From NCBI RefSeq assembly GCF_003334765.1, contig NZ_QOWT01000031.1: a stretch of 47,728 nt of DNA; one strand, 5' to 3'. The position numbers were made by a program, and so were the translations under genes. This document shows, piece by piece, positions 1 to 9,574 of this stretch; within the stretch, counting starts at the first letter, position 1; each line of letters begins with the position of its first letter. The notes beneath the pieces are model-generated. The model did not search any database, was not told where the DNA came from, and saw only the letters and a list, made by a program, of their open reading frames with translations. The DNA comes from Escherichia coli (GTDB lineage Bacteria > Pseudomonadota > Gammaproteobacteria > Enterobacterales > Enterobacteriaceae).

Positions 1-117
1 GGCCACTCAATATCAGGTGCAGTTGATGTATCAACACGGTTCAGCAACACCCGATACTTTTTCCAGGCTTCCAGCAACGGGGTTTCTTCCTCCGTTGCAT
101 ATACAGCTCACCTTTTT

Positions 118-411
118 TCACCCACGATTAACCAACAGCCAGACCAGCAGACACGCCACCACCGGCACAGCAAAATCTATCAGGCTTGCCACATCCCAAA
201 CACGCGGATCAAAACCGCCCCACCACGGCATGTTAATCCGCTTGCCATGCCCGAACATTTCAATCCAGCGATATTCTGCCTGGGTGTGTTCACGCGCAAT
301 GAAGAACGTACAACCGGCTATCGCCCCGTAAACCCAGTTTCCGGCAAAAAGACCAATCATTACCTGCGCAGCCACAGCACAAAGCGCATGAAGAAAAGGT
401 GTTATATCCAT
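118..411 (-). CDS. Small hydrophobic inner-membrane protein (97 aa), last gene of the prophage minus-strand operon
   Basis: ORF with two to three hydrophobic helices (AVAAQVMIGLFAGNWVYGAIAG, FAVPVVACLLVWLLV); 10-bp gap to upstream gene. Confidence 0.4.
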   Translation of the reverse strand: MDITPFLHALCAVAAQVMIGLFAGNWVYGAIAGCTFFIAREHTQAEYRWIEMFGHGKRINMPWWGGFDPRVWDVASLIDFAVPVVACLLVWLLVNRG

Positions 412-421
412 TACTCCTCCT

Positions 422-1126
422 TTATCCGATATCGCTTTGGGAAGTTGATAACAACTTCAATTCTGACTCAAGTTCATCAACTCTTTCAGTCAGTTTCTGG
501 ATATGGTGAATCAGTGGAACAACCAGACGTTCGTACATTACACCTTCGGCAACAAGACCATTGCTGGAAATAGCTTCAGGAGCATCATTCTCGTTGGCTG
601 GTCGCCAGTGTACAAACTGAGGGGCAATTTCTCCTACTTCCTCGGCAATTAATCCGTAGAATCCCCAGTCACGCCTGTCATTTTCACATTGCGACCTGTA
701 CCATACAGGGCGCATCCTGAAAATGAGATCGGCGTGCTCTGAATCTATCGTCTCTACTGAATGTTTATAGCGAATAGACGATGTTGACCGCAGTACAGAC
801 GAAATTGCAGGGTCAGGATTAAGATAAAGGTTTGCCGCCGCTGTAGTCGTGCCCAAATTCCATAAATAAAACGCTTCACGACCAGTCAGCGGGTAAAAAT
901 CTCCACCATAATTACCGCTTTCCAGAGCATTCACTTCCAGTTTGTTTTTCAGCTTATTATCAACTTCAGTTTTTGTGTATCTGGTGCTGATATCCTGCTG
1001 TGCACTGGCCATATCAGTCTGAAGCGTTGATACTTTTCCGTTAATAGAGGAAATATCTTCCTTTGCTTTACTAACATCTCCCTTTAGCGTGGTGATGTCT
1101 CCCGGAATTACTGTCGATGTAGCCAT
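422..1126 (-). CDS. Tail-fibre-like protein: coiled-coil N-terminus plus C-terminal intramolecular-chaperone (peptidase S74-like) domain
   Basis: 234-aa ORF; heptad-like N-terminus, C-terminal segment (RMRPVWYRSQ...GFYGLIAEEVGEIAPQF) typical of self-cleaving tail-fibre chaperone domains; too short for a full fibre. Confidence 0.5.
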   Translation of the reverse strand: MATSTVIPGDITTLKGDVSKAKEDISSINGKVSTLQTDMASAQQDISTRYTKTEVDNKLKNKLEVNALESGNYGGDFYPLTGREAFYLWNLGTTTAAANLYLNPDPAISSVLRSTSSIRYKHSVETIDSEHADLIFRMRPVWYRSQCENDRRDWGFYGLIAEEVGEIAPQFVHWRPANENDAPEAISSNGLVAEGVMYERLVVPLIHHIQKLTERVDELESELKLLSTSQSDIG

Positions 1127-1135
1127 TTTTCTTCC

Positions 1136-1417
1136 TCACATCCAGCCACGAAGTTGATGCTCAACAGCAACCACGTATTCATCGAATATTGACGGTGTTT
1201 TCACATCATTAATGATGCGCACGTTTACAAAATATCCGTCTTCCTTAACACATACCGGTTCGCCATCTTCAGTCAGCTCTCCGGTTTCTTTGTACACGTT
1301 ACCTATCACATCAATAAGAATATCATCCTGCATCGACTCGTCATTATAATAGCCAATACTTCCCATAAAAGCCGAAAAGTCGGCCCTGTCGGCAAATTTG
1401 AGTGTTAAATCTTTCAT
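1136..1417 (-). CDS. Hypothetical acidic phage protein (93 aa)
   Basis: ORF whose start overlaps the upstream stop by 4 nt (ATGA); no recognisable motif. Confidence 0.35.
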   Translation of the reverse strand: MKDLTLKFADRADFSAFMGSIGYYNDESMQDDILIDVIGNVYKETGELTEDGEPVCVKEDGYFVNVRIINDVKTPSIFDEYVVAVEHQLRGWM

Positions 1418-7434: not shown

Positions 7435-7787
7435 ATGTTTTCGAAATGGAAGGGTTTCTTCGCGGGAAATGTGTACCGCGAGATCTGAAAGTGAATGAAA
7501 CAAATGCTGAGTACCTGTTACGTAAATTCGACGCGCTTGAAGCTAAATGTGCGGCACTGGAAAACAAAATAATACCAGTGTCAGCTGAACTGCCACCAGC
7601 AAATGAAAGTGTTCTGTTATTTGATGCTAATGGAGAAGGCTGGCTGATTGGCTGGCGTTCTCTCTGGTACACCTGGGGACAAAAAGAAACCGGAGAATGG
7701 CAGTGGACATTTCAGGTCGGGGACCTTGAAAACTTCAATATCACTCACTGGGCAGTAATGCCAAAAGCACCGGAGGCTGGAGCATAA
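7425..7787 (+). CDS. yfdS: YfdS-like prophage protein (DUF551-type, 120 aa)
   Basis: ORF overlapping the yfdR-like stop by 10 nt; length matches K-12 YfdS. Confidence 0.55.
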   Translation: MRMNVFEMEGFLRGKCVPRDLKVNETNAEYLLRKFDALEAKCAALENKIIPVSAELPPANESVLLFDANGEGWLIGWRSLWYTWGQKETGEWQWTFQVGDLENFNITHWAVMPKAPEAGA

Positions 7788-8092
7788 TGACCACATTTAC
7801 CAATAAAGAACTGATTAAAGAAATCAAAGAACGAATCAGCAGCCTAGAGGTTCGAGACGATATTGAGCGCCGTGCTTATGAAATCGCACTCGTATCTCTG
7901 GAAGTAGAGCCAGATGAACGCGAAGCCTATGAATTATTCATGGAAAAGCGTTTCGGTGACTTAGTAGATCGTCGGAGAGTAAAAAACGGCGATAACGAAT
8001 ACATGGCATGGGATATGACTCTCGGTTGGATCGTCTGGCAGCAACGAGCTGGTATCCATTTTTCAACAATGACACAGCAAGAGGTGAAATAA
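7787..8092 (+). CDS. yfdT: YfdT-like prophage protein (101 aa)
   Basis: ORF; its stop overlaps the xis ATG (TAATG). Confidence 0.5.
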   Translation: MTTFTNKELIKEIKERISSLEVRDDIERRAYEIALVSLEVEPDEREAYELFMEKRFGDLVDRRRVKNGDNEYMAWDMTLGWIVWQQRAGIHFSTMTQQEVK

Positions 8093-8463
8093 TGGAGCCA
8101 TACAGCCTCACACTCGATGAGGCCTGTCAGTTTCTTAAGATATCCAGACCAACCGCCACCAACTGGATACGAACAGGCCGCCTACAGGCAACACGTAAAG
8201 ATCCAACCAAGCCAAAATCTCCTTACCTCACAACACGGCAAGCTTGCATTGCGGCGCTTCAGTCTCCGCTGCATACTGTCCAGGTGAGCGCGGGTGATGG
8301 CATAACAGAGGAAAGAAAATGTCACTCTTCCGCAGAAATGAAATATGGTATGCCTCGTATTCGCTCCCGGGCGGGAAACGAATTAAGGAATCTCTTGGCA
8401 CAAAGGACAAGCGGCAAGCTCAGGAGTTGCACGACAAGCGAAAAGCAGAACTCTGGCGAGTAG
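8092..8463 (+). CDS. Excisionase (Xis)-like DNA-binding protein; reading frame runs 145 nt into the integrase gene, possibly C-terminally altered
   Basis: N-terminal about 75 aa resemble excisionase HTH ([26 protein letters not shown]); the rest overlaps int in another frame. Confidence 0.5.
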
Positions 8464-9482
8464 AAAAGCTAGGGGATTTACCTGATGTCACTTTTGAAGA
8501 GGCCTGCCTAAGATGGCTTGAGGAAAAAGCTGATAAAAAATCTCTCGATTCAGATAAAAGCCGGATTGAGTTCTGGCTTGAACATTTTGAGGGTATAAGG
8601 CTTAAAGATATCTCGGAGGCAAAGATTTACTCTGCTGTAAGCAGAATGCATAACAGAAAGACGAAAGAAATATGGAAACAGAAAGTTCAGGCCGCCATCA
8701 GGAAAGGTAAAGAACCGCCTGTTTATGAACCAAAGCCAGTATCAACTCAGACAAAGGCAAAGCATCTTGCCATGATAAAGGCCATTCTCCGTGCTGCAGA
8801 ACGCGACTGGAAGTGGCTGGAAAAAGCGCCTGTCATCAAGATACCAGCGGTCAGAAACAAGCGAGTCAGATGGCTGGAAAAGGAGGAAGCAAAACGCCTT
8901 ATTGATGAGTGCCCCGAACCACTGAAATCTGTCGTCAAGTTTGCGCTGGCAACTGGTCTGAGAAAGTCGAACATCATAAATCTGGAATGGCAACAAATCG
9001 ACATGCAGCGACGAGTTGCCTGGGTGAATCCAGAAGAGAGCAAATCAAACCGCGCCATTGGTGTGGCGCTGAACGATACCGCCTGTAAAGTGTTGCGTGA
9101 TCAAATAGGCAAGCATCACAAATGGGTGTTTGTACATACCAAGGCGGCTAAGCGAGCAGATGGAACATCAACGCCTGCGGTCAGGAAGATGCGCATCGAC
9201 AGCAAGACATCATGGCTATCAGCTTGTCGTCGTGCAGGAATTGAAGATTTCCGTTTCCATGACCTCAGACACACCTGGGCAAGCTGGCTGATCCAGTCAG
9301 GCGTCCCATTATCTGTGCTTCAGGAAATGGGCGGATGGGAGTCCATAGAAATGGTTCGTAGGTATGCTCACCTTGCGCCTAATCATTTGACAGAGCATGC
9401 AAGGAAAATAGACGACATTTTTGGTGATAATGTCCCAAATATGTCCCACTGTGGAATTATGGAGGATATAAAGAAGGCGTAA
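8319..9482 (+). CDS. intD: Phage tyrosine integrase (DLP12 IntD-like, 387 aa)
   Basis: C-terminal catalytic motifs of tyrosine recombinases ([14 protein letters not shown]); ends 16 bp from the tRNA-Arg 3' end. Confidence 0.9.
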
Positions 9483-9497
9483 CTGATTGAATTGTAA

Positions 9498-9574
9498 TGG
9501 CGCGCCCTGCAGGATTCGAACCTGCGGCCCACGACTTAGAAGGTCGTTGCTCTATCCAACTGAGCTAAGGGCGC
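9498..9574 (-). tRNA. argU: tRNA-Arg (anticodon UCU)
   Basis: 77-nt reverse-complement match to a cloverleaf with anticodon loop CU-UCU-AA, T-arm GGTTCGAATCC and 3' CCA; prophage attachment site. Confidence 0.9.

Follow-up and report, generated by a model that had tools for sequence, protein, structure and literature searches.

The stretch of DNA analysed here (the window) comprises 47,728 nucleotides of an Escherichia coli contig (NZ_QOWT01000031.1), and the element under study is a prophage remnant which, with the tRNA gene argU, occupies positions 1–9574 of that window (Table 1). To the right of argU the sequence is collinear with E. coli K-12 in one alignment of 38,327 bp at 99.3% identity, which runs from argU through fimZ, the sfm operon, folD, purEK and the all genes (allX) to rhsD; because of this collinearity the host can be taken as an ordinary E. 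coli and the foreign DNA as positions 1–9545. The 50-bp attachment (att) core, which shares sequence with the 3′ part of argU, is 98% identical to the repeats at the far ends of the K-12 prophage DLP12 and of phage PhiR49_1 (BLASTN) and agrees with the argU-derived repeat published as 47 bp (PMC6379469). Between the integrase gene and the 3′ end of tRNA-Arg(UCU) there are 15 bp, the integrase shares 384 of 387 residues with K-12 IntD, and positions 8224–9700 as a whole are 99.5% identical in nucleotides to the intD/xisD/argU region of K-12 (BLASTN). An IntD orthologue adjoining argU defines an IntD-type argU prophage, and the likeness of integrase and tRNA-Arg site to DLP12, which the original prediction had proposed, is borne out. 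A direct-repeat test found one copy of the core (9496–9545) and a second copy inside the window was rejected; the position of the far-end counterpart is known from relatives only, the attR core of the argU-locus prophages L014 and L017 lying 4,328 bp beyond window position 1. The other attachment site does lie outside the window, as had been proposed, and attR is predicted about 4.3 kb to its left.

This element departs from the canonical module order of a complete lambdoid prophage: ymfM breaks off at codon 19 and continues as stf from codon 368. In a three-way alignment of the window, the ymfL–ymfM region of PhiR49_1 and the stf gene of FG92-1, the window tracks PhiR49_1 to ...CTTCCTGTACCG and from TACCGTTTAACG... 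onward it tracks FG92-1 stf, with a sharp switch at the pentanucleotide common to both genes; the BLAST end-points at this junction fall at 2698 and 2702. The resulting open reading frame (ORF) of 446 aa is an in-frame fusion, whose residues 1–19 are identical to the N-terminus of K-12 YmfM (19/19) and which from about residue 19 to residue 446 is 99% identical to residues 368–795 of the 795-aa FG92-1 Stf (the alignment reaches over Stf residues 359–795, also at 99%); against the tail protein profile phrog_1419 it aligns with positions 367–793 of 793. Its start is still that of ymfM, and this start codon and the stop codon of ymfL overlap (ATGA). Relative to PhiR49_1 the missing block covers coordinates 6800–38178 (6799 to 38179, 31,380 bp), or about 31.4 kb, and the equivalent distance in the argU prophage of KK19-02 (L002) is 31,405 bp. 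The block includes the remainder of ymfM, an O-like replication gene, a methyltransferase gene, RusA, Q, a porin moron, holin/lysozyme/Rz, terminase, portal, capsid and tail genes, J and Lom, together with that half of Stf, the N-terminal one, which attaches to the tail. Neither the ORF list nor the phrog profile search gave any replication, lysis or capsid gene in 1–9574. The original prediction was right that such genes are lacking here and that the element is defective, but they do not simply lie beyond the window: about 31.4 kb present in PhiR49_1 and KK19-02 has been deleted. It had named a complete prophage in normal order as the observation that would speak against it, and the alignment shows instead the break at 2698–2702.

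Apart from this break, the int-proximal part of the element is nearly the same as that of its intact relatives. Three bases differ from PhiR49_1 (PV340568.1) between positions 2698 and 9496, the integrase gene being free of them, and two bases differ from the KK19-02 prophage between 2698 and 9700. Apart from 2–3 single-nucleotide polymorphisms (SNPs) the three have int, xis, yfdP–yfdT, a gene for a 171-aa protein, cI, cro, ymfL and codons 1–19 of ymfM in common, and they also agree in the att core, in the order of their genes and in the direction of the tail-fibre genes. The difference is that the segment from ymfM codon 20 to stf codon 367 is absent from the window element, and that its stf allele is another one than that of PhiR49_1. 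In PhiR49_1 and KK19-02 the gene next to ymfL is ymfM or a small ORF, and then come the O-like replication gene, methyltransferase, RusA, Q and porin, after which holin/lysozyme/Rz, terminase, head, tail, J, Lom and stf are found. The PhiR49_1 record describes a complete lambdoid genome of 45,270 bp with ECOR13 as propagation host; no publication on the PhiR (ECOR) phages turned up among the papers available for searching, and the label of functional phage rests for this reason on the GenBank record (argU is not mentioned in PMC6731689). Since the prophages are near-identical whereas in the adjoining KK19-02 chromosome to the right of argU, which holds fimZ and the sfm genes, about 2% of positions depart from the window, the phage has moved horizontally and recently into different chromosomal backgrounds. 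A single piece that covers at least 80% of 2698–9574 occurs in 214 of 5,426 complete E. coli genomes. The "mosaic" of the original prediction does exist, with a DLP12-type int next to CPS-53-like genes, but it is not peculiar to this element: given the three bases that separate it from PhiR49_1 and its presence in those 214 genomes, the int-to-ymfM arrangement is the normal state of a common phage lineage.

The junction itself is real but rare. Positions 1–2697 adjoin 2698 onward in none of the 5,426 complete genomes, and the exact 35-nt junction GATTGCGCTTCCTGTACCGTTTAACGATTCGCTGG has no match among the 2.9 million viral contigs of IMG/VR. The exact 446-aa fusion was found in independent public assemblies (ERR271232 with two more samples, and SRR3951470, about four runs in all), whose contigs keep its neighbours ymfL, cro, cI and the 93-, 234- and 97-aa genes and follow the window through the junction with 100% identity (window positions 49–5172 and 1322–5172). 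It is this independent assembly from public sequencing runs that makes the junction real. The deletion would also seem to be recent, because the prophage part is almost free of SNPs relative to intact relatives.

Table 1. Features of the argU prophage remnant (window positions 1–9574)
Feature	Position	Strand	Basis or remark
tfa pseudogene, 3′ fragment, cut by window edge	1–98	minus	K-12 tfaD similarity
orf97, 97-aa protein, function unassigned, after tail-fibre genes	118–411	minus	phrog_1443, E = 1.5e-57
orf234, 234-aa tail-fibre-domain protein	422–1126	minus	phrog_3299, phrog_454 (tail fiber)
orf93, 93-aa protein, function unassigned, directly downstream of stf	1136–1417	minus	phrog_1361, E = 3.2e-45
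Fusion ORF, 446 aa, in frame: YmfM 1–19 + Stf 368–795	1414–2754	minus	protein comparison; phrog_1419
Deletion junction, 5-bp microhomology TACCG (minus strand), common to ymfM and stf	2698–2702	.	three-way alignment
ymfL, CII-like regulator, 185 aa	2751–3308	minus	phrog_101; PF06892
cro-type repressor, ymfT homologue, 66 aa	3352–3552	minus	phrog_35 transcriptional repressor
Predicted right operator region (OR), between cro and cI	3559–3625	.	motif search: two 17-bp sites
cI repressor, 224 aa, LexA-like S24 autopeptidase	3643–4317	+	PF00717 Peptidase_S24; phrog_4
Terminator-like hairpin after cI	4329–4348	+	terminator scan
PL-like promoter TTGACA-16-CATAAT, near consensus	4357–4384	+	function inferred from layout
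Two operator-like sites on PL-like promoter (OL)	4364–4380, 4384–4400		motif search; function inferred from layout
171-aa protein, function unassigned	4532–5047	minus	phrog_1244 (unknown function)
yfdP	5518–5880	+	K-12 CPS-53 identity; RefSeq names in KK19-02
yfdQ	5946–6770	+	K-12 CPS-53 identity; RefSeq names in KK19-02
yfdR, 5′-deoxynucleotidase	6898–7434	+	K-12 CPS-53 identity; RefSeq names in KK19-02
yfdS-like	7425–7787	+	K-12 CPS-53 identity; RefSeq names in KK19-02
yfdT	7787–8092	+	K-12 CPS-53 identity; RefSeq names in KK19-02
xis, full-length excisionase, 124 aa	8089–8463	+	overlaps int start; phrog_2907
intD, tyrosine integrase, 387 aa	8319–9482	+	K-12 IntD comparison
attL: 50-bp att core, overlapping 3′ part of argU (attL with argU, 9496–9574, minus)	9496–9545		BLASTN match to relatives
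argU, tRNA-Arg(UCU)	9498–9574	minus	ARAGORN, sole tRNA found

The immunity region (2698–4466) is 98.9% identical over 1,770 bp to the ymfM′-ymfL-ymfT-ymfK segment of the K-12 prophage e14, and the three components of the e14 immunity module, namely the CohE/YmfK repressor, YmfT (Cro) and YmfL, are all present. The CI sequence is exactly that of COHE_ECOLI (e14 CohE/YmfK), and its Peptidase_S24 domain (PF00717), accompanied by weak LexA/UmuD NCBIfam matches, predicts autocleavage. The cro gene is annotated as Cro in PhiR49_1 and as ymfT in K-12 and KK19-02, and ymfL, inside the e14 match, corresponds to the CII-like transcriptional activators of phrog_101 (E = 1.3e-70) and to PF06892 (Phage_CP76). 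cI and cro are divergent and separated by a 90-bp intergenic region with two operator-like sites, TGTACCTCCGGTATACA at 3559–3575 and TGTACCTTAACGGTACA at 3609–3625, the second of which is a perfect palindrome. For the operator motif (TGTACC-N5-GGTACA, 17 bp) the window has six matches where 0.96 would be expected, a count reached in 0 of 100 shuffles. With the divergent gene pair, the operator-bearing spacer and a second set of sites at PL, the layout around cI is that of lambda OR and OL/PL, and this lambda-type repressor switch, which the original prediction had also seen to be kept, is intact by its sequence.

The early-left genes beyond the PL-like promoter resemble those of another K-12 prophage. 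Positions 5499–8154 are 97.7% identical over 2,656 bp to yfdP–yfdT of CPS-53 (BLASTN), in line with the CPS-53-like gene content first proposed. The excisionase gene that follows is full length, with a match to phrog_2907 over profile positions 2–117 of 117 (E = 6.8e-46) and 75–79% identity to the Xis proteins of P22, epsilon34 and SfI over at least 98% of the length, whereas xisD of K-12 is truncated. At the position of xis in KK19-02 (25395–25457) the RefSeq/PGAP annotation gives a 21-codon "helix-turn-helix, incomplete" pseudogene, which looks like an annotation artefact of the xis/int overlap. Between PL/OL and yfdP, antisense to the early-left operon, stands the gene of the 171-aa protein, with its own terminator-like hairpin (4493–4474, terminator scan). 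The protein has a coiled-coil-like N-terminal region and C-terminal CxxC...CxxC motifs, and Pfam gave insignificant coiled-coil matches only. The gene is kept in PhiR49_1, KK19-02 and many other genomes, and by position and orientation it fits a putative moron expressed in the lysogen. For this ORF, yfdP–yfdT, orf93, orf97 and ymfL, PADLOC gave no defence match and NCBIfam no family at its curated cut-off. A ymfH-like ORF also lies here (5192–5503, plus strand), within a segment (5118–5507) that is 89.5% identical to e14 ymfH. In KK19-02 it carries a frameshift annotation; a single base here (5371) separates the window from that prophage, and none separates it from PhiR49_1. If real, the frameshift is older than the deletion and not peculiar to the remnant.

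At the other end, positions 1–2754 carry tail-fibre genes. Together with the e14 immunity module, the deletion junction at 2698–2702 and the full-length xis, these were not part of the original prediction. The counterpart of positions 1–2702 is the 3′ half of lambdoid side-tail-fibre genes plus the next three genes, and these positions are 100% identical to the stf-orf93-orf234-orf97 cassette of L014 and L017, in which a methyltransferase, an alpha/beta hydrolase, an omptin, the attR core and the chromosomal envY-ybcH-nfrA genes follow beyond the stub. The position of orf93 after stf is conserved in relatives, and orf97 has an equal position in PhiR49_1, FG92-1 and L011–L020. The orf234 product has a C-terminal Peptidase_S74 (intramolecular chaperone) region with a weak PF13884 match, and its exact sequence occurs in 165 blocks of a public assembly collection. 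The tfa fragment at the window edge is 96.9% identical to the 3′ end of K-12 tfaD and 84.5% to tfaX (BLASTN), and at the collinear point of KK19-02 the annotation gives an incomplete tail fiber assembly protein. An identical cassette is also found elsewhere, next to the trp operon in L011, L013 and L016 and next to thrS in FG92-1 (L003). Its occurrence at several loci is consistent with a possible exchange of tail-fibre cassettes among resident lambdoid prophages.

The element shares parts with three K-12 prophages and is equivalent to none of them. With DLP12 it has in common the integration site, the att core, IntD, the tfa fragment and, as far as can be deduced from relatives, the ybcY/ompT right arm; both are lambdoid prophages decayed by deletion. 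However, positions 99–8223 have no BLASTN homology with DLP12, and the DLP12 gene set (exoD/renD/emrE/ybcK...quuD/essD/rrrD) was not found there. DLP12 has a truncated xisD, exoD/renD remnants, IS3, IS5, emrE, Q and lysis genes and lacks cI/cro, whereas the window element has a full xis, the CPS-53-like yfd genes and the e14-type switch and has lost Q and the lysis genes. With e14 it shares the immunity region cohE(ymfK)-ymfT-ymfL-ymfM′ with its identical CI, and e14 likewise has an internal deletion with a chimeric ORF, ymfN (a replication protein/terminase chimera), just downstream of ymfM. Unlike the window element, e14 carries intE/xisE at icd, an intact ymfM (SfiC), lit, pin and mcrA; in the window element the deletion begins one gene earlier and ends in stf. 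CPS-53 (KpLE1) has the same yfdP-yfdQ-yfdR-yfdS-yfdT early genes, but the BLASTN match is confined to yfdP–ypdJ, and intS at argW, gtrABS and torI are absent from the window element. The Shigella phages SfIV and SfV are 95–96% identical to positions 2698–8587. The element is best classed as a deletion derivative of a PhiR49_1-like phage at argU, and nothing in it falls outside known biology.

At the far right end of the window, positions 45000–47728 are of low GC content (35–40%) and correspond to the rhsD C-terminal/ybbC/ylbH region of K-12. They contain a 212-bp internal repeat (46120–46331 and 47316–47527, about 87% cross-match), and the stretch is an ordinary Rhs locus.

It is highly probable that positions 1–9574 are the int-proximal arm and the tail-fibre stub of a PhiR49_1-type lambda-like phage, cut by a deletion of about 31 kb. 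A phage would have integrated into the 3′ end of argU, and one illegitimate-recombination deletion would then have joined ymfM, which in the rightward early operon comes directly after the CII-like ymfL, to the side-tail-fibre gene stf at the 5-bp microhomology. Several points weigh against this reconstruction. No single sequenced parent was found to be 100% identical on both sides of the junction, and the stf allele of PhiR49_1 and KK19-02 differs from that of the window (94% over positions 1–1526 and divergent further on). The parent may already have had other deletions, which makes 31.4 kb an upper estimate. The left end including attR lies beyond the window, and with no public complete genome carrying the junction the full structure is deduced from relatives. 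Finally, immunity, SOS induction, excision and expression of the fusion are extrapolated from characterised relatives.

By sequence, attL/argU, int, xis, yfdP–yfdT, the 171-aa gene, cI, cro, ymfL and the OR and OL sites are all intact. CI would repress PL and PR and thereby confer immunity to phages of the e14/PhiR49_1 type. After DNA damage, RecA-stimulated self-cleavage of CI would be expected; PL would then express xis and int, and the element, provided that attR is intact, could be excised as a non-replicating circle and lost. PR would express cro, ymfL and the YmfM′-′Stf fusion, translationally coupled to ymfL, and perhaps also drive the tail-fibre accessory genes. In e14, ymfM encodes SfiC, a division inhibitor induced by the SOS response and probably controlled by CohE (bioRxiv 10.1101/2020.11.19.390815). 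No replication, division block, lysis or particle production should follow induction of the remnant; nothing lethal would, because ymfM and the replication and lysis genes have been destroyed. The Stf fragment would lack the N-terminal tail-attachment domain and would have no tail to attach to.

Related prophages with the same stf allele, several of them at argU, carry further unusual ORFs. A 657-aa ORF with Nu1 and J domains is found in L018, a 777-aa ORF with tail-tube and J domains in L020, a 320-aa ORF containing Nu1 in L015, and truncated Stf proteins of 649 aa in L011 and L017. These fusion ORFs suggest internal deletions in the relatives as well, and the prophage type seems to decay repeatedly in this manner, which, with e14 ymfN as a further case, is the usual course for such prophages. 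Prophages at the DLP12 locus, present in 74% of 638 strains, are classic "grounded" prophages (PMC6379469).

The joint might instead have arisen by recombination with the stf gene of another lambdoid prophage, in which case the left end would belong to another locus and have been brought in by inversion or another large rearrangement. The same stf module (99–100%) does occur next to thrS (FG92-1) and next to the trp operon (L011, L013 and L016), and the left flank beyond window position 1 lies outside the sequence. An identical module is nevertheless present in the right arm of L014 and L017, at the argU locus itself and in the orientation expected for a simple deletion, and the gene order and strand of the window are those of PhiR49_1 minus an internal block. 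Moreover, joints with 5 bp of microhomology are what deletions typically leave; many chromosomal genes would be missing after a megabase-scale deletion, and with an inversion there would have to be a second joint. Such an origin is therefore considered very unlikely.

No greater probability can be given to a selected, long-kept domesticated module, that is, an immunity island or satellite-like element with a host or parasitic function. In its favour, none of the retained genes is damaged, what was lost (ymfM, replication, lysis) is precisely what is lethal, the in-frame fusion is coupled to ymfL in translation, and benefits of "grounded" prophages have been documented (PMC6379469). Against this, the rarity described above, with only about four runs carrying the junction, and the 2–3 SNPs per 6.8 kb relative to intact phages, beside a chromosome flank at about 2%, leave no time for visible selection. 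In addition, an in-frame joint is expected in one of three cases by chance, and the break-points lie within two ORFs and not at module borders. A satellite or phage-inducible chromosomal island (PICI)-like reading was rejected, the break-points being inside two ORFs and the flanks identical to normal phage. The word "domesticated" in the original prediction is not supported, since the junction is absent from all the complete genomes searched and the retained part is near-identical to intact phages.

A functional version of the fusion is held to be extremely improbable. The fusion, coupled to ymfL under PR, and the intact S74-chaperone fibre gene would in that case give a working SOS-inducible product, and the remnant would be maintained as an island of both immunity and host range. 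The product might be a free fragment that binds the receptor and so keeps phages with the same receptor from adsorbing; another possibility would be a fibre cassette that superinfecting lambdoid phages acquire by recombination. An assembly artefact, with two prophage contigs misjoined, deserves next to no credence: lambdoid prophages are repeat-rich and often misassembled, and the junction is in no complete genome, but the overlap is of 5 bp only, without any repeat, and independent assemblies of at least two public runs are 100% identical across it.

The deletion derivative of a PhiR49_1-type phage thus preferred is a case of routine prophage decay, of a kind already known, and its significance beyond annotation is slight. 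For annotation, the 446-aa ORF should be entered as a ymfM′-′stf fusion or as a pseudogene and not as a tail protein, and prophage finders may misscore the region as intact or questionable with int, xis, cI, cro and tail-fibre genes all present. The element offers a clean example of prophage "grounding", in which one microhomology deletion strips the lethal and lytic functions and spares immunity and excision, in parallel with the chimeric ymfN of e14 and the varied fusion ORFs of argU-locus prophages. The strain that carries it is predicted to be immune to phages of e14/PhiR49_1 immunity and unable to release the phage of this prophage.

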